Virus record (IMG/VR): IMGVR_UViG_2675903575_000011
Reading direction: 5' to 3' (one strand)
DNA: 15,248 nucleotides
DNA from: a virus
Lineage: Duplodnaviria; Heunggongvirae; Uroviricota; Caudoviricetes
Positions 4,659 through 11,874 of the stretch are shown here, piece by piece (positions within the stretch are counted from its first letter, which is position 1; every line of letters starts with the position of its first letter). Under the pieces are notes generated by a model. The model saw only the letters and a program-made list of their open reading frames with translations. It had not been told where the DNA came from and did not search any database. A program made the position numbers and the translations under genes.

Positions 4659-4957
4659 CAAGGGCAGTGCGTATCCATCAATTAAAAATTGCACCTAAGT
4701 ATTTCAACGTTGTGGTTGCAGGTCAAAAGACGGCTGAACTTCGTAAAGACGATCGTGGCTATAAAGTTGGTGATGTTCTTTCTCTTTGCGAATGGAAGCA
4801 TGGCGTATTTACGGGTAGGGAATGGGCCGCTGTTATCTCTCATGTGCTTCCGGTTAATGACGTCATGGCAGTTTCAGAACAATGGGTGATGCTATCAATT
4901 CGCCCATTAACCCCATTAGAAGCTTTAGGATATGTTATTGCAGGAGGTGCTGTATGA
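4655..4957 (+). CDS. DUF3850/ASCH-like small protein
   Basis: 100-aa ORF starting at ATG 4655 (ATGA overlap with the TraR stop). N-terminus [33 protein letters not shown] matches the conserved DUF3850/ASCH signature as recalled. Confidence 0.6.
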
Positions 4958-5811
4958 GCACCATCCTGAAATGGGCGGGTAATAAAACTACCATTATGTC
5001 CGAACTGAAAAAACATCTTCCTGCTGGCCCGCGACTGGTTGAACCTTTCGCGGGTTCCTGTGCTGTGATGATGGAGACGGATTACCCCAGCTATCTTGTT
5101 GCGGATATTAATCCTGATTTAATCAACCTCTATAAAAAGGTTGCTGCTGATTGTGAATCGTTTATATCTCGCGCCAGAGTTTTATTTGAGATCGCAAACA
5201 GGGAGGTGGCTTATTACAACATAAGGCAGGAGTTTAATTACTCAACTGAAATTACTGATTTCATGAAAGCGGTATATTTCCTGTATCTCAATCGTCACGG
5301 TTACCGTGGTTTATGTCGCTATAACAAGAGCGGGCATTTCAACATTCCCTACGGTAATTATAAAAATCCGTATTTCCCTGAAAAAGAAATTCGCGCATTT
5401 GCAGAAAAGGCCCAGCGAGCAACGTTTATCTGCGCCAGCTTTGATGAAACGCTGGCGATGTTGAAGGCGGGGGATGTGGTGTATTGCGATCCGCCGTATG
5501 ACGGTACGTTTTCCGGCTATCACACTGATGGTTTCACTGAAGATGACCAGTATCACCTGGCATCCGTTCTTGAACATCGGTCATCAGAAGGACATCCGGT
5601 CATTGTTTCTAACAGTGACACATCCCTGATCCGTTCGCTGTATCGCAATTTTACTCACCACTACATCAAGGCAAAACGCAGCATCGGCGTAGCAGCTGGT
5701 GAGAGTAAATCTGCAACAGAAATCATCGCTGTTTCTGGGGCACGCTGCTGGGTGGGATTTGATTCTTCGCGTGGCGTGGATAGTTCTGCCGTGTACGGAG
5801 TGCGTGCATGA
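4954..5811 (+). CDS. dam: DNA adenine methyltransferase (Dam-like, D12-class N6-adenine MTase)
   Basis: Motif I region ([11 protein letters not shown]) and catalytic DPPY motif ([11 protein letters not shown]); N-terminus LKWAGNK typical of Dam. Start ATG 4954 overlaps the upstream stop (ATGA). Confidence 0.9.
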
Positions 5812-8228
5812 GCCATGCTGATATGAACAACTGCAGCGGCTTTAACGAGGCCGCCGCAGCATTCTCATGGAACAGCCCGAAAAAGGCTATTAACCCTTAT
5901 CTGGACCCGGCGGAAGTTGCGCCGGTTTCTGCGCTTTCAAACCTGATCACTCTGTACGCTGCCGATAACGAGCAGGAACAACTGCGCCGCGAGGCACTGA
6001 GTGATCAGGTCTGGGAGCGTTATTTCTTTAATGAATCCCGTGATCCTGTCCAGCGCGAAATGGAGCAGGATAAGCTTATTAGCCGGGCAAAGCTGGCGCA
6101 TGAGCAGCAGCGTTTTAATCCGGACATGGTCATACTGGCGGACGTTAACGCCCAGCCTTCCCATATCAGCAAGCCGCTGATGCAACGTATTGAATACTTC
6201 AGCAGCCTGGGCAGGCCAAAGGCTTATTCCCGCTATTTGCGTGAGACGATTAAGCCATGTCTGGAACGACTGGAGCATGTACGCGACAGTCAGCTATCCA
6301 CTTCTTTTCGCTTTATGGCAAGCCATGAAGGGCTGGACGGCCTGCTGATCTTGCCTGAAATGAGTCAGGATCAGGTGAAACGCCTGTCTACTCTTGTCGC
6401 TGCGCATATGAGTATGTGTCTTGATGCCGCTTGTGGTGATTTGTACGCCACCGATGATGTTAAGCCAGAAGAAATCCGCAAGACATGGGAAAAGGTGGCA
6501 GCAGAAACCCTGCGACTGGATGTCATACCGCCTGCGTTTGAGCAACTCCGCCGGAAAAGAAACCGCCGTAAACCCGTGCCCTATGAACTCATTCCGGGTT
6601 CGCTGGCGCGTATGTTGTGCGCCGATTGGTGGTACCGGAAATTATGGAAGATGCGTTGCGAATGGCGGGAAGAGCAGTTGCGTGCTGTTTGCCTGGTCAG
6701 CAAAAAAGCATCTCCCTATGTCAGCTATGAAGCCGTGATGCATAAACGTGAGCAGCGCCGTAAGTCGCTGGAGTTTTTCCGTTCTCATGAACTGGTGAAC
6801 GAAGACGGCGACACGCTGGACATGGAGGATGTGGTAAACGCCAGCAGCAGCAACCCTGCGCATCGCCGCAATGAGATGATGGCCTGTGTTAAAGGTCTGG
6901 AGCTTATCGCGGAAATGCGCGGTGACTGCGCCGTTTTCTACACCATCACCTGTCCGTCACGTTTCCATTCCACGCTAAATAACGGCAGGCCCAACCCGAC
7001 CTGGACAAATGCGACGGTAAGACAAAGCAGTGATTATCTGGTCGGCATGTTTGCTGCATTTCGTAAGGCGATGCACAAAGCCGGGTTGCGCTGGTATGGC
7101 GTGCGGGTGGCTGAGCCGCATCATGACGGCACAGTTCACTGGCACCTGTTGTGTTTCATGCGCAAAAAAGACCGCCGCGCCATTACTGCATTGTTGCGTA
7201 AGTTTGCTATCCGTGAAGACCGCGAGGAGCTGGGTAATAACACGGGGCCACGCTTTAAGTCTGAGCTGATAAACCCGCGCAAAGGAACGCCGACTAGCTA
7301 CATCGCGAAATACATCAGTAAGAACATTGACGGGCGTGGTCTGGCTGGCGAGATCAGCAAGGAAACGGGTAAATCTCTGCGTGATAACGCTGAATACGTT
7401 AATGCCTGGGCGTCTCTGCATCGTGTTCAGCAATTCCGCTTCTTTGGCATTCCGGGGCGTCAGGCTTACCGTGAACTGCGATTGCTGGCTGGTCAGGCGG
7501 CAAGGCAACAGGGTGACAAAAAAGCAGGTGCGCCGGTACTGGATAACCAGCGCCTTGATGCCATTCTGGCTGCAGCTGATGCTGGTTGTTTTGCCACCTA
7601 CATCATGAAGCAGGGCGGCGTACTGGTTCCCCGTAAATATCACCTCATCAGAACCGCTTATGAAATCAACGAAGAGCCGACCGCCTATGGCGATCACGGC
7701 ATTCGTATTTATGGCATCTGGTCACCCATTGCAGAGGGCAAAATCTGCACTCATGCAGTGAAGTGGAAAATGGTTCGTAAGGCCGTTGACGTTCAGGAGG
7801 CGGCAGCCGACCAGGGCGCTTGCGCCCCTTGGACTCGGACTCGTGGCAATAACTGTCCCCTTGCTGAAAATTTGAACCAACAAGGGAAAGACAAATCAGC
7901 TTATGGGGATACCAGAACGGACATTACCCGCATGGATGACAAGGAGTTGCACGATTACCTGCACAGTATGAGCAAAAAAGAGCGCCGGGAACTGGCTGCA
8001 AGGTTACGCCTGGTGAAACCGAAACGGCGTAAAGACTACAAACAGCGAATTACAGACCATCAGCGACAGCAGCTCGTCTATGAGCTGAAGTCCAGAGGAT
8101 TTGATGGCAGCGAGAAAGAGGTCGGTTTACTCCTTCGCGGCGGCAGTATTCCGTCAGGAGCAGGCCTGCGTATCTTCTATCGGAACCAGCGTTTGCAGGA
8201 AGATGATAAGTGGCGGGATCTGTATTAA
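5808..8228 (+). CDS. A: Rolling-circle replication initiation endonuclease (P2/186 gpA family)
   Basis: 806-aa ORF in the gpA position after the early genes. HUH-type motif ([10 protein letters not shown]) with downstream Tyr-containing region (YIAKYISKN). Start ATG 5808 overlaps the dam stop (ATGA). Confidence 0.9.
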
Positions 8229-8320: not shown

Positions 8321-8340
8321 TACTGTAAATATAAACAGTG
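8321..8340. promoter_or_regulatory. LexA operator (SOS box) TACTGTAAATATAAACAGTG
   Basis: Matches CTGT-N8-ACAG with an AT-rich spacer, close to the TACTGTATATATATACAGTA consensus. Overlaps a candidate promoter (TTTACA at 8298..8303; TATACT at 8319..8324) 40 bp upstream of ORF 8381. Confidence 0.7.
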
Positions 8341-8380: not shown

Positions 8381-8569
8381 ATGCAGGACTATTTTTTGGA
8401 GTCTTTGAAGCTCCAGCGCATTGATTTTTTTCTTAAGCTTGTAGCGGCTAGTGAGTGTAGTGATGAAGAGAAGGGGCTGGCCCTGCAGTGGGTTTCTGAA
8501 CTAACAGATGAACTCATGGCAAAAATCAGAACCCACGAATACAACCGCTCAATGGATGTCATCAGCTGA
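8381..8569 (+). CDS. Small SOS-controlled protein (62 aa); candidate Tum-like antirepressor
   Basis: RBS aggagga at 8371..8377, ATG at 8381; first gene downstream of the LexA box, in the position of the 186 tum operon. Function is inferred from context only. Confidence 0.4.
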   Translation: MQDYFLESLKLQRIDFFLKLVAASECSDEEKGLALQWVSELTDELMAKIRTHEYNRSMDVIS

Positions 8570-8579
8570 GGTGACTTTT

Positions 8580-8813
8580 ATGCGCATTGAAATAATGATC
8601 GATAAAGAGCAGAAGATTAGCCAGTCTACCCTGGACGCTCTGGAGTCCGAGCTTTACCGCAACCTGCGCCCCCTGTATCCCAAAACGGTAATTCGTATCC
8701 GCAAAGGTAGCTCTAACGGTGTGGAACTTACCGGACTGCAACTGGACGAAGAAAGAAAACAAGTGATGAAAATTATGCAGAAAGTGTGGGAAGACGACAG
8801 CTGGCTGCATTAA
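8580..8813 (+). CDS. dinI: DinI-family protein
   Basis: 77-aa ORF, MRIEIMIDK...LDALESEL...WEDDSWLH, closely parallels E. coli DinI as recalled (MRIEVTIAK...IDALAGEL...WESADDWF). RBS gaggtg at 8567..8572. Confidence 0.8.
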   Translation: MRIEIMIDKEQKISQSTLDALESELYRNLRPLYPKTVIRIRKGSSNGVELTGLQLDEERKQVMKIMQKVWEDDSWLH

Positions 8814-8948
8814 GAAACGTTGCTGGCGTCTGAACTTGCTTCTGGCGTCAGCAAGGTTGAACAACGAGCCCTTGCGAGGCGTTAGCTCTGTAGTGCATGT
8901 CTATGCCGCATGAGATCGCATGATCGTTTGAGGATCGTTTTTGCTAAG

Positions 8949-8972
8949 GCCCGCCAGAACTGGCGGGCTTTT
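8949..8972 (+). terminator. Rho-independent terminator closing the LexA-controlled operon
   Basis: Perfect GC-rich inverted repeat GCCCGCCAG / CTGGCGGGC (8949..8957 and 8960..8968) followed by TTTT (8969..8972). Confidence 0.7.
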
Positions 8973-9017
8973 GCGTAGATCATGCAGGTGCATGAAAACC
9001 ACTGCATAAAGCGGGCA

Positions 9018-9036
9018 GGCGTGGCGGGGATACGAG
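9018..9036. other. Putative cos (cohesive-end) site
   Basis: GGCGTGGCGGGGATACGAG; the first 13 nt match the P2/186 19-nt cohesive-end sequence as I recall it (GGCG[A/T]GGCGGGGAAAGCA[C/T]). Located between the replication/SOS region and the portal gene, as expected. Confidence 0.4.
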
Positions 9037-9137
9037 CGCGCGCAACAGTGTAACAATCTGGATCTAATGTGATATAGTTACTGTAAATATTATTAACTAT
9101 TCTTATATGCATTATTAAATATTTTAATGGAGCGTTT

Positions 9138-10811
9138 ATGGAAAAATATCAAGATGAGGAATATGTAGATGATTTAACTGAGCGTGTTTTTCTCATTAAG
9201 CAACAACTGGAAGCGGGAAAACTAAAAATAGCTCATCATCTTGTAGAAGGTTTTATTGAAAGTTTTAAAAGAATAAGGCTGCGACAGGATGGTAAAGTTG
9301 ACCCTTCTACTGTTGATGGCAGAATAAGGGCTATGGGAGCAGCGGTTAATCACTTTTTAGAAAGAGAAGATATAAAAAACAAATACTCTATTCAGGACTT
9401 GCAAAGTTCTTACTTTAATATTCTTTTTAGTAATTTTGGCGAGTTGTTTTATCTGATGAAAAAAACTAATGCAACGCCACATAAAGCATCAAGTTTTTTT
9501 TCTCAACAAGAAGAATATGTTAAGCAAATAGAAGATATTTTTCCTGAGTTATATAATCAGGTAATAGAGTTTTGGCAGGTAACATCCGATATTGGTGTAA
9601 TACATTTGCAGGATGGTTCTCAGTTTAAAGCTAATTTTTCTGGTGACTTATTTCCTGCATTTGATGAGAATGCTGTCTCTATTGCAGGGTTGTATGTTGA
9701 TACTATTTCACTTCCATGTCCTATATTAAGAGTCGGTCGTCTCTATGAAAAGTCAGATAAGGCTGAGTTTACAAGGATACTTCTGAAGCATGTCCTAACA
9801 TGTATGACATATAAAGAAGTAGCGCTTGAAGATATAGAGCCAGCAATAGTATTAATTTTGCCGGATAGAAGAGATTTTGAAACTGAGAGCAAAAAAAATT
9901 TGATGAGTTTTTGTGAGCCTTATGCTCTGACTCATGCGCAATATCTCTATGATCGACGGTTCGAAAGCTACGATGAATTTCGAGATTTTAGTTATTCGAT
10001 GAATGATATTGATGCTGTTCTTAAAAATATTAAGAGAGCAGATAGACTTATTTTTGATACAGCATGGGGGCTAAATCCAAAAACTCAATTAGAAAAACTA
10101 CTATCTGATAAAAAAAGAATATCACGTAATGTTGTTGGTGATCATGCTGGAATGGAGGTTTTCCTTTCCTGCATTGGAAGAATGCCGCAAGCCTATTCAG
10201 CAAAATGTAATGCACAAGAACTTGGTAGTACTCCATATATAAATGCAGACACATCTTGGCTCTATTATACTTGGCTTATTGAGTACGAATCTCTTAATTT
10301 TGATGTCAATGATATTGAACTAAAAAATTTGCATATGGTTCATGCGTTATCTGCTGGTATGCAAGATGGTTTTTCATGGTTAGGAAATGTACCGGTCAAT
10401 AAAATAATTGAGTTGAGACGTAACAAATTGATGGAGGATGTAAGATCCATCTTATCAAATGGTGTTGACTCTTTAATCAATTCTTCGGCAGAGAGCTTTT
10501 CGAGGACAACGCAAAAAGTAATTGATAATGTAGACCGGGCTTTTATTGAACATCAAAGGATTCTTGCAAAAGCCCAAAAAGAGAAATTGAGAATTTACGG
10601 ACTAGATGTCCTACCATGTATCGCAAATGGTGCTATAGCAATTGCTGGAGCGCTGACTGGCAATACTACTTTAACGGCGTTAAGTGCAGGCCTTGGAGTA
10701 ATAGGTATTCCGAGTATTAGTGATATCAAATCTAAATTTAAGCAGAGGCAAGAGAAGCTTGATGCCTATCAACGTTCTGTTACAGGTATACTCTTTAGCC
10801 ATAAATCTTAA
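9138..10811 (+). CDS. Orphan AT-rich 557-aa protein, unknown function; candidate phage-borne defence/exclusion protein (soluble N-terminal region plus C-terminal glycine-rich hydrophobic hairpin)
   Basis: Long uninterrupted ORF with RBS (ggag at 9129..9132) 5 nt before ATG 9138. Composition visibly AT-rich versus flanking phage genes. No Walker A or other motif I can recognise. C-terminal ANGAIAIAGALTG...LSAGLGVIGIPSI is hydrophobic and glycine-zipper-like. Convergent with the portal gene and ended by a hairpin. Confidence 0.7.
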   Translation: MEKYQDEEYVDDLTERVFLIKQQLEAGKLKIAHHLVEGFIESFKRIRLRQDGKVDPSTVDGRIRAMGAAVNHFLEREDIKNKYSIQDLQSSYFNILFSNFGELFYLMKKTNATPHKASSFFSQQEEYVKQIEDIFPELYNQVIEFWQVTSDIGVIHLQDGSQFKANFSGDLFPAFDENAVSIAGLYVDTISLPCPILRVGRLYEKSDKAEFTRILLKHVLTCMTYKEVALEDIEPAIVLILPDRRDFETESKKNLMSFCEPYALTHAQYLYDRRFESYDEFRDFSYSMNDIDAVLKNIKRADRLIFDTAWGLNPKTQLEKLLSDKKRISRNVVGDHAGMEVFLSCIGRMPQAYSAKCNAQELGSTPYINADTSWLYYTWLIEYESLNFDVNDIELKNLHMVHALSAGMQDGFSWLGNVPVNKIIELRRNKLMEDVRSILSNGVDSLINSSAESFSRTTQKVIDNVDRAFIEHQRILAKAQKEKLRIYGLDVLPCIANGAIAIAGALTGNTTLTALSAGLGVIGIPSISDIKSKFKQRQEKLDAYQRSVTGILFSHKS

Positions 10812-10842: not shown

Positions 10843-11874
10843 TTATATGAAACTGTATGGCATGAATTTTATTATGTCATCTTTGAGCCATTTATTGAGT
10901 TCTTCTATTCTGTTTTGTAGCGGTATCAATTCATTACGCATAAAAACCTTACTAGCCTTCTCCACATCCCCAAATCCCCCAACATTATTCGGCATTATCC
11001 CCATCATTTGCGGCGGCACTCGGTGTGCTGCCATCATGTCATCCCGGCTCACGTTCTTGATATTCAAAAATTCATCCTTTGCCGCGACTTCTGACAGAGG
11101 AATAATCTGAAGCCCGTCTTTTTTGCCGTTAGGCGAGTACATAAACAGGTTGCGGAAGTTGCCTGGACCTTTGGCGCTTTTCATCGCGTTACGGAGATTG
11201 TTTACATCTTCCTGGTTCTGCGCGGCGTCGGTCATGTACATGATGAAGCCTGCATGGCTGCCGTTGATGTAATACTTACGGCGGAACAGCGTGGCGGACT
11301 CGTTGAGCAGGGCTGACGGAATGGCAGAAAGATAACCGGGCAGGCCGTAGATCTCCTGGTTGATATCTGGTTCCATCAGATGAAAAATGCTGCCTTTCGT
11401 GAACTGATACGGTTGCGTGGTCATACCGTATTGCACAAACCAGTAGGTATCCAGGTCTAACCCGCGTCGGGTATATTTTGCCAGGGCAGGCTCAAGAGCG
11501 ATAATTTCACCGAACCGGTTCGTGCGTTTCTCCAGATAGGCGTTACCAAATACCAGATAGTCCTGCACAAAACGTGAAAAAGCCTGCTGGCTGAGCAGCG
11601 GGTGAGGGATGTAGGTGCTGGTCAGAATGTTGCACTTTACTGCAATCGGGGAACTATGATGAACGGCAGCGCGGAAGGTGCGCGCCAGTCCGTCAAAGCT
11701 GACGGGCGGCTCATACCAGCGGTCCATCTGTACGCATTCCACATAATCCAGCAGTTCTCGGCGGTCCAGAACAGGAACGGGATCGCCGAAGCTGAATGCT
11801 TCGGCTGTAGTTTGACTTTTAAGCTGGATCTGTTTCGTCGCCGCAGCGCGGTTCTTCTTACTCTTTCCCATCAA
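10843..11874 (-). CDS. Q: Portal protein (P2 gpQ family)
   Basis: 343-aa ORF, the size of P2 gpQ, immediately downstream of and overlapping (ATGA) the large terminase gene on the minus strand, as in the P2 PQ operon. Confidence 0.85.
   Translation of the reverse strand: MMGKSKKNRAAATKQIQLKSQTTAEAFSFGDPVPVLDRRELLDYVECVQMDRWYEPPVSFDGLARTFRAAVHHSSPIAVKCNILTSTYIPHPLLSQQAFSRFVQDYLVFGNAYLEKRTNRFGEIIALEPALAKYTRRGLDLDTYWFVQYGMTTQPYQFTKGSIFHLMEPDINQEIYGLPGYLSAIPSALLNESATLFRRKYYINGSHAGFIMYMTDAAQNQEDVNNLRNAMKSAKGPGNFRNLFMYSPNGKKDGLQIIPLSEVAAKDEFLNIKNVSRDDMMAAHRVPPQMMGIMPNNVGGFGDVEKASKVFMRNELIPLQNRIEELNKWLKDDIIKFMPYSFI

Follow-up and report, generated by a model that had tools for sequence, protein, structure and literature searches.

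A conserved GATC pair in the left flank of a P2-family cos site

In the left flank of its cos site, a prophage segment of the P2/186-like type (Peduoviridae) carries a cluster of four GATC sites, and comparison with related sequences indicates that this cluster is composed of two different parts, namely a conserved GATC-N7-GATC pair (sites 2 and 3) and two young lineage-specific sites (sites 1 and 4) that are consistent with chance. The segment analysed, hereafter the window, is one strand of 15,248 nucleotides, and judged by the window alone the cluster is real yet marginal, barely going beyond chance (scan P ~0.05); it is because of the conservation in relatives that the cluster becomes significant. 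The cos core itself is known, and what appears to be new here is the conserved GATC pair in the flank of a P2-family cos. In the literature we found nothing on GATC, AGGATC repeats or Dam at P2-family cos sites or their flanks, and nothing relevant on undermethylated GATCs in P2-like prophages.

Regarding the gene context, the integrase and the repressor of the window lie on the minus strand, and the early operon is arranged in the order dam, gpA, a small ORF and the dinI-like gene (Table 1), after whose stop (8813) a 324-bp intergenic region extends to the next ORF (9138). Portal Q shares the minus strand with the large terminase P (PF03237/PF17289), which is followed by the scaffold O (GPO), and close relatives in the phage collection have an identical gene order with annotations that agree. 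It had been predicted that the GATC cluster is non-coding and stands next to a putative cos, and that the phage encodes a Dam of its own, and all of this holds: the sites fall between the dinI-like stop and the ORF at 9138, a cohesive end of the P2/186 type follows 40-104 bp to their right, and the dam gene is of the D12 class. No RNA family was found by Rfam, either in the whole window at the gathering threshold or in 8560-9140 at E<=1. Two minus-strand ORFs (8882-9112 and 8901-9056) were considered and rejected, since they run through cos into DNA that is not homologous and show no codon-like conservation.

By its cohesive-end consensus, its shared core and its gene context, the region is, as far as can be read from the sequence, a member of the P2-family cos sites. 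The predicted cohesive end follows the consensus GGCG(A/T)GGCGGGGAAAGCA(C/T), of which the family form is GGCG(A/T)GGCGGGGA; 15 of its 19 nt are those of P2 cosR, its first 13 nt are the same as in the 186-type phage RCIP0057 (GGCGTGGCGGGGA), and the linear record of Salmonella phage SEN8 terminates at the equivalent of 9017, one base before the cohesive end. The cos-core pattern TGCATNAAAACC-N8-AAGNGGGCNGGCGNGGCGGGG matches the window, P2, 186 and P4 as well as 120 genome loci, which comprise both phages and satellites. As in P2, 186 and P4, the cohesive end has an AAAACC-N8-AAGCGGGC block on its left and CGCGCGC on its right, and the site lies between the gpA side and portal Q, in company with a P2-type terminase and by the defence-gene hotspot that adjoins P2-family cos (PMC9122126).

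Table 1. Features of the window that bear on the GATC cluster and the cos site
Feature	Position	Strand	Remarks
Phage dam, D12-class N6-adenine DNA methyltransferase	4882-5811	+	PF02086, E=1.2e-76; directly upstream of gpA
Replication gene A (gpA)	5808-8228		PF05840
dinI-like gene	8580-8813	+	PF06183, E=6.6e-23; DinI annotation in relatives; last gene before cos flank
Conserved left cos flank, ~125 bp	8893-9017	+	Starts with GTGCATG at 8893; contains all four GATCs
TGCATG repeat 1	8894-8899	+	93% conservation among related modules; also in P2, 186, P4
CGCATGA repeat 2	8907-8913	+	GCAT in 92-100% of modules
GATC site 1	8914-8917		Begins 104 bp left of first cohesive-end base; lineage-specific, recent
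CGCATGA repeat 3	8917-8923	+	Overlaps GATC site 2
GATC site 2	8922-8925		Begins 96 bp left of first cos base; first half of GATC-N7-GATC pair
GATC site 3	8933-8936		Begins 85 bp left of cos; motif AGGATCG, second half of pair
Central inverted repeat GCCAG-N4-CTGGCG, then T-run	8943-8976	+	Arms 8943-8957 and 8960-8974
GATC site 4	8978-8981		Begins 40 bp left of cos; lineage-specific
TCATGCA / TGCATGA, TGCAT repeats 4 (inverted) and 5	8980-8995		85-100% conserved
cos core	8996-9046	+	AAAACC, short inverted repeat, 19-nt cohesive end, CGCGCGC
Predicted 19-nt cohesive end GGCGTGGCGGGGATACGAG	9018-9036	+	Aligns with annotated P2 cosR and P4 left end
Cargo ORF, AT-rich	9138-10811		Beyond cos
Portal Q	10843-11874	minus	PF04860

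The core is preceded by a conserved left flank, of which 41 sequence variants share the block behind at least six unrelated upstream flanks; on the other side, homology with relatives ends at ~9046 in the alignment from the dinI stop to cos of seven phage relatives. The layout of the flank is that of P2, 186 and P4, in which three TGCAT(G) repeats spaced 10-13 bp apart at about -125 to -95 are followed by a ~50-bp spacer, usually with a GCCAG-N4-CTGGCG inverted repeat, and then by one or two TGCAT at -40 to -25; between these and the cohesive end stand AAAACC and a short inverted repeat. Unlike these three, the window has, in the part from the third TGCAT repeat to the central hairpin, the pair and two further GATCs. 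We infer that the TGCAT repeats are putative terminase-binding or architectural sites, and no paper naming a protein that binds the P2-family TGCAT repeats was found. According to those passages of PMC9594776 that cite Ziermann and Calendar (1990), a 55-bp cos core is common to P2 and its satellite P4, and flanks longer than this core raise cosmid transduction; the GATC cluster is located outside the published 55-bp core and inside the extended conserved flank. The flank module is present in 1,272 of 5,426 complete E. coli genomes, and among the matches listed 10 of 12 modules are without an annotated feature, with an overlapping CDS in the other two. The flank was also surveyed at 84 loci, consisting of the window, seven phage records and IMG/VR contigs with identical DinI; as the dinI-based search gave only loci with 100% identical DinI, this set suits the study of recent variation and not deep sampling.

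As had been claimed, the GATC sites flank a hairpin, with GC arms and then a T-run, and this hairpin probably acts in the window's clade as intrinsic terminator for the rightward SOS/dinI operon. Its GCCAG..CTGGCG core is kept in P2-like and P4-like modules, and the T-run is restricted to that clade. A perfect LexA box at 8323-8338 suggests that SOS transcripts enter the cos-flank region and would stop at the hairpin. The promoter/terminator scan missed this hairpin owing to its short loop. The terminator t95b of 186 was considered as its counterpart and rejected, for in 186 the first TGCAT repeat comes only to the right of t95b, and the central repeat lacks a T-run.

Within the flank, the positions given for the four GATC sites in the original prediction proved exact, and so did the direct repeats in which they are embedded, i.e., the two copies of CGCATGA and the two copies of GATCGTTT at 8922-8929 and 8933-8940. 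The pair reads GCATGATC-N5-AGGATC with its sites 11 bp apart, and the methylatable A of site 2 is at the same time the final base of the third GCATGA repeat. In addition, site 4 yields GATCATGC, in which the GCATGATC of 8918-8925 recurs perfectly in inverted orientation. Some other candidates for the cluster were inspected by eye: a leftward promoter TTAGCA-17-GATCAT agrees with the consensus at 8 of 12 positions only and its -35 is not conserved, the Fis +/-3 positions and the IHF motif ATCAA..TTR do not fit at GATC-N7-GATC, and no OxyR-like or Lrp-like sites were seen at the cluster.

How unusual such a cluster is depends on the way of counting. The expectation of well under one site per 68 bp, on which its prominence had been based, is right for a stretch chosen beforehand (0.22 sites), but four sites within 68 bp or less arise in 5% of random placements, and three within 23 bp or less in 8% of trials in which 50 sites are placed in 15,248 bp. 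GATC is not enriched in the window as a whole, where 50 sites are observed vs 50.7 expected from shuffles, or one per 305 bp; its density is raised locally, the 324-bp intergenic region having 15.4 GATC per kb vs 1.8-3.4 per kb elsewhere, an excess of about 5-fold. Within the window, many other tetramers form tighter clusters.

For a comparison among relatives, one genome per bacterial species was scanned for the cos-core pattern, which gave the 120 loci, and 118 sequences (including the window and P2) with at least 135 bp left of cos were kept. By flanking homologues of gpA/Q or of P4 alpha/psu they were classified into 77 P2-like cos regions (including the window), 26 P4-like satellites and 15 unclassified loci. 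The GATC-N7-GATC pair is found in 32 of the 77 P2-like regions, and in 30 of these 32 carriers its offset from cos is the same as in the window. SopEPhi, the prophage of Salmonella SL1344, has its sites 105, 96 and 85 bp left of cos. As a guard against circularity, a narrower set was defined by at least 70% identity to the window outside all GATC columns, which contains 31 P2-like modules; the 8922 site is present in 29 of them, the 8933 site in 28 and both in 27, one or both having been lost in the remaining four. The eight GATC bases of the pair are 94-100% conserved in these modules (97-100% in the 8922 columns and 94-100% in the 8933 columns), whereas the first five of the seven intervening bases are 45-58% conserved, with 16 different heptamers, and the 11 bases following the second site have a mean conservation of 67%. 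At the second site the conserved unit extends to AGGATC, with the A at 94% and the G at 87%. Moreover, the pair persists across gpA types (35% and 80% identity), across Q types (57-90% identity) and in unrelated upstream contexts.

The conservation seen in the cluster applies to the 8922/8933 pair, but not to the two outer sites, since site 1 is found in one and site 4 in none of the 31 comparable P2-like modules. At the position of site 1, relatives have GAAATC, GAATCC or GAGATT instead of the window's GAGATC, and at that of site 4 they have TATGTCATGC; both sites toggle by 1-2 substitutions in recent relatives from E. coli and Klebsiella (TAGATCATG to TATGTCATG). GATCs additional to the pair amount to about six in 32 modules, or one per ~680 bp, where the background alone would give one per 305 bp. 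The idea of a cluster of four acting as a unit is therefore not borne out.

Furthermore, the pair is confined to part of the family. P2, 186 and P4 have zero GATC in the last 190 bp before cos, and the pair occurs in 0 of 26 P4-like satellites and 0 of 15 unclassified loci. Five satellites and five unclassified loci are as similar to the window as the phage modules are, yet none of them has either site of the pair; these ten modules keep every TGCAT repeat, with GCATGAGTC... replacing the pair. Because P2, 186, P4 and all satellites are without the pair, the GATCs would lie outside the basic cos recognition code of the P2 family. That the satellites mimic the remaining module without the pair argues that the pair is not required by the helper terminase, and its absence from them fits a regulatory or negative role, the loss of which would benefit a satellite.

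A related arrangement is seen in another lineage. The cos core, together with the GCCAG..CTGGCG repeat, recurs in a Tolumonas prophage, in Aeromonas phage LPM4 and in four IMG/VR relatives. The TGCAT triple repeat is lacking in the five Aeromonas-type sequences, and the Aeromonas-type flanks have three conserved (A/G)AAGGATC(T/G) repeats 126, 107 and 95 bp from cos, behind upstream flanks that differ; in the Tolumonas flank, TGCATGA and AGGATC motifs are interleaved. Taken together, the AAGGATC repeats of Aeromonas and the AGGATC of enterobacteria suggest that GATC-containing repeats at this place are old and recurrent, and a conserved unit that exceeds GATC points to a sequence-specific protein.

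The original prediction tied the cluster to the phage's own dam, and this tie turns out to be weak. Judged on those loci that had an assessable stretch upstream of gpA, 11 of 12 phages with a Dam homologue there possess the pair, as do 10 of 18 that lack one (Fisher P=0.049, ignoring phylogeny and linkage, with dam only ~4 kb from cos). Where the pair occurs without dam, the ORF preceding gpA was by inspection unlike a methyltransferase, and in one Aeromonas-type contig with GATC repeats the 12 kb before cos, gpA included, contain no homologue of D12 Dam. The P2 genome annotation has no methyltransferase gene, and 186 has a PAPS-reductase-like gene at the position of dam. Hence phage dam seems at most loosely associated with the pair and would not explain it. 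On the side of the hosts, those of the pair are all Enterobacterales or Aeromonadales, orders that are known to possess Dam. No GATC is present at three Sphingomonas loci that share this cos core, and Dam-type GATC methylation is not known in alphaproteobacteria.

As for what the pair does, our tentative explanation, to which we would give somewhat less than an even chance, is that it serves the cos flank as an accessory element, specific to phages, to which a protein binds, and that the binding is most likely sensitive to methylation. A packaging-linked and methylation-readable role is plausible because the pair is constrained at a fixed distance from cos, and such an element would stand outside the minimal terminase recognition code. 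With a GATC core and Dam+ hosts, both sites of the pair should be methylated, and hemimethylated just after replication. Candidates for the binder are SeqA, acting on the hemimethylated pair, and terminase or some other factor, acting on the adjacent repeat. Binding of this kind would couple the use of cos to DNA replication and methylation state: occupancy at the hemimethylated pair could delay terminase on freshly replicated circles or, alternatively, methylation may tune the affinity of a phage protein for the pair. P4-like satellites, from which the element is absent, would gain from the earliest possible packaging.

A bolder version, which we consider unlikely, would make the pair, together with the Aeromonas AAGGATC repeats, a methylation checkpoint for cos packaging in the Peduoviridae. 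In that case, hemimethylated circles would be held back, e.g., by SeqA occluding the third TGCATGA repeat, so that only fully Dam-methylated DNA would be cut and packaged; the packaged DNA would thereby be safe from restriction of unmethylated GATC in the next host, and P4-like satellites would have shed the element so as to be packaged ahead of the helper.

There are some observations that count against reading the pair by its methylation. AGGATC and AAGGATC are longer than Dam or SeqA needs, and methylation is possibly irrelevant; P2 and 186 package efficiently with no GATC in the flank; and many carriers of the pair are without dam, with which the association is borderline.

A serious alternative, possible in our estimation although on the doubtful side, is that the AGGATC and GCATGATC repeats are additional sites, independent of methylation, for a DNA-binding protein of phage or host that gives the cos flank its shape, for instance the clade's small terminase subunit gpM or a bending factor; their GATC core would then be incidental and Dam without a regulatory part. 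The conservation reaching past GATC to AGGATC is as this explanation would have it, and so are the frequency of the pair among dam-less phages, its spacing in the range of 11-12 bp that is usual for tandem protein sites, and the Aeromonas-type flank, which swaps the TGCAT triple repeat for three AAGGATC in the manner of alternative protein-binding repeats. However, satellites that copy every TGCAT repeat omit the pair, which means that the helper terminase is not dependent on it, and the two enterobacterial sites have only A-N-GATC in common; besides, a protein reading GATC in the major groove would meet N6-methyladenine in Dam+ hosts, and full indifference to it would be unusual.

Quite unlikely, in our view, is the explanation that the pair has no function and is a product of chance carried along by a slowly evolving cos flank. 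It would accommodate the in-window scan P of just 0.05-0.08, the recent and unconserved state of two of the four sites, the additional GATCs that do not rise above background, and the lack of these GATCs in P2, 186 and P4. What it fails to accommodate is that GATC bases conserved at 94-100% stand beside bases at 45-58% with 16 intervening heptamers, that the offset is identical in 30 of 32 loci of different species, and that GGATC repeats arise independently in the Aeromonas lineage.

It was also considered that the pair might work in RNA, as a termination or other signal in the 3'-UTR of the SOS/dinI operon in which GAUC would pair with GAUC in a 4-bp stem with a 7-nt loop. The predicted fold does pair GAUC 8922-8925 with 8933-8936 in a region that folds more stably than its shuffles (z=-2.75), and the LexA box suggests SOS transcripts entering here, but a stem of 4 bp is very weak, there is zero covariation (it is always GATC/GATC, and the flanking bases extend the stem inconsistently), the pair is retained where the upstream gene differs from dinI, e.g., with gpA directly before the module, and Rfam gives no match; this makes the RNA explanation very improbable.

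Finally, a Dam-regulated promoter or phase switch of the pap, agn43 or opvAB kind, acting on the cargo or on an antisense transcript, is hardly credible, even though non-coding GATC clusters are typical of such switches and the cargo is preceded by a promoter-like site (9050-9078) whose spacer contains a fifth GATC (9061), given that the promoter scan finds no sigma-70-like site overlapping 8914-8981 on either strand, that the terminator hairpin and cos stand between the cluster and the cargo promoter, and that the cargo varies among phages while the pair is constant, with homology stopping at ~9046. The suggestion that the cluster controls the cargo promoter accordingly lost most of its appeal.

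Among known systems, the pac site of phage P1 is the one that the accessory-element explanation calls to mind first. In P1, seven TGATCA/G hexamers on both sides of the cut form the recognition element, and Dam methylation gates cleavage by the pacase (PMC10028697). The window is like P1 pac in having several GATCs in the target DNA of the packaging enzyme of a Dam-carrying phage, and a similar coupling logic is plausible. In contrast, its sites are one-sided and 40-104 bp from the cut, one of them only (8921-8926, TGATCG) fits the P1 hexamer, its terminase is P2-type with cos rather than headful packaging, and P2, 186, P4 and 26 of 26 satellites with the same terminase family package without the GATCs. 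With one hexamer, a one-sided arrangement and relatives that do without it, the region is, by these comparisons, not a site of the P1 pac type.

The second comparison concerns SeqA, of which a dimer needs two hemimethylated GATCs that face the same side of the helix at a distance of about one turn (PMC2691817). Like the SeqA sites at oriC, P1 oriR and replication forks, the window pair has such a form in sequence, its sites being 11 bp apart on the same face; unlike them, it is not at an origin, the P2-type ori being inside gene A, and it has two conserved sites and no dense array. In phage lambda, the terminase-binding repeats R1-R3 of cosB, an IHF bend and the termination element cosQ flank cosN. 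The window resembles lambda in that accessory short repeats and a bend or hairpin lie within 100-150 bp of the nick site and would aid the efficiency of cos, whereas there is no sequence similarity and the repeats of the P2 family are TGCATG(A).

With regard to the significance of these results, roughly one in four of the complete E. coli genomes has a P2-like prophage. The cos of P2 and P4 has been engineered into cosmids and antimicrobial transducing particles, for which the flanks of the 55-bp core affect efficiency (PMC9594776). Should the pair be inert, it would be a mere descriptive detail of a well-known cos site. If it is an accessory element as proposed, a phage-specific and Dam-methylatable flank element would refine the definition of a fully functional cos, packaging in the P2 family could sense methylation or replication state as it does in P1, and a handle would be at hand to bias packaging among helper, satellite and cosmid. 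If even the checkpoint were true, cos phages would have their own counterpart to the P1 pac switch, and helper and satellite would be competing along a new axis.

Searching for the closest full-length match to the window leads to CP019275.1, a circular record of 37 kb submitted as an E. coli 'plasmid'. Its content is a complete P2-like phage genome, in whose annotation many genes are flagged as frameshifted and the large terminase is labelled 'oxidoreductase'. Five loci among the species-representative genomes (L098, L115, L140, L192 and L198) have exact enterobacterial-type P2/P4 cos cores in records labelled as a Bacillota MAG, Vagococcus sp., a Chloroflexia MAG and a Lachnospiraceae MAG, and their homologues of Q (portal) or of the P4-like satellite genes psu or alpha are 60-75% identical to E. 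coli-type proteins. The cores under these labels are probably due to contamination or mis-binning. Three Sphingomonas matches, with a more divergent Q (47-50%), may be genuine.

Comparison of the left cos flank of the window (8893-9017) with the ends of P2, 186 and P4 (L088, L089 and L090) showed that the central inverted repeat is absent from P2's own flank. In the flank of the Aeromonas type (L213, L216-L219), three AAGGATC repeats take the place of the three TGCATG(A) repeats of enterobacterial phages, and the two types of motif are interleaved in the Tolumonas locus L196. The literature searched gave no protein that binds the P2-family cos-flank repeats.

Features of the window outside the cos flank
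Feature	Position	Remark
dam ORF as listed	4882-5811	start about 24 codons ahead of the likely start
LexA box	8323-8338	perfect match (CTGTAAATATAAACAG)
Inverted repeat	8818-8856	immediately 3' of the dinI stop
Cargo ORF with upstream promoter-like site	9050-10811	ORF of 557 aa, 35% GC, AT-rich

As for the dam gene, the Pfam domain starts at residue 31 of the listed ORF, and the stop codon shares a 4-bp overlap with the start codon of the replication gene gpA (5808), which suggests that the two genes are translationally coupled. In phage 186, a PAPS-reductase-like gene is at the position that dam has in the window.

The cargo ORF lies in the P2 defence hotspot on the right side of cos, a slot that in relatives is filled by TIR-domain, Ymh-domain or ATPase/RloB genes. 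A Pfam search with its product gave no match, and the sole PADLOC match was a weak one to DitB (E=7e-10). The promoter-like site (9050-9078) has an extended -10, and its spacer contains a fifth GATC (9061). To the left of the flank, the segment GTTGAACAACGAG..GCGAGGCGTTAG (8857-8887) is invariant across 8/8 aligned relatives, the 186-type phage included, and an annotated ORF begins immediately 3' of its equivalent in Klebsiella phage ST13-OXA48phi12.1. The segment resembles a leader with the ribosome-binding site for a cargo slot, one that holds no gene in the window.

The inverted repeat preceding this segment shows apparently compensatory changes in the alignment of relatives (TTGCGGACG..CGTCCGCAA and TTGCAGGCG..CGCCTGCAA), and its position is occupied in phage 186 by the partial terminator t95a. 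Further upstream, about 45 bp separate the LexA box from the small ORF at 8381-8569, which the dinI-like gene follows. This arrangement resembles the SOS-controlled p95/tum operon of 186. On the basis of this box and arrangement, the transcripts running into the cos flank are probably induced by the SOS response.
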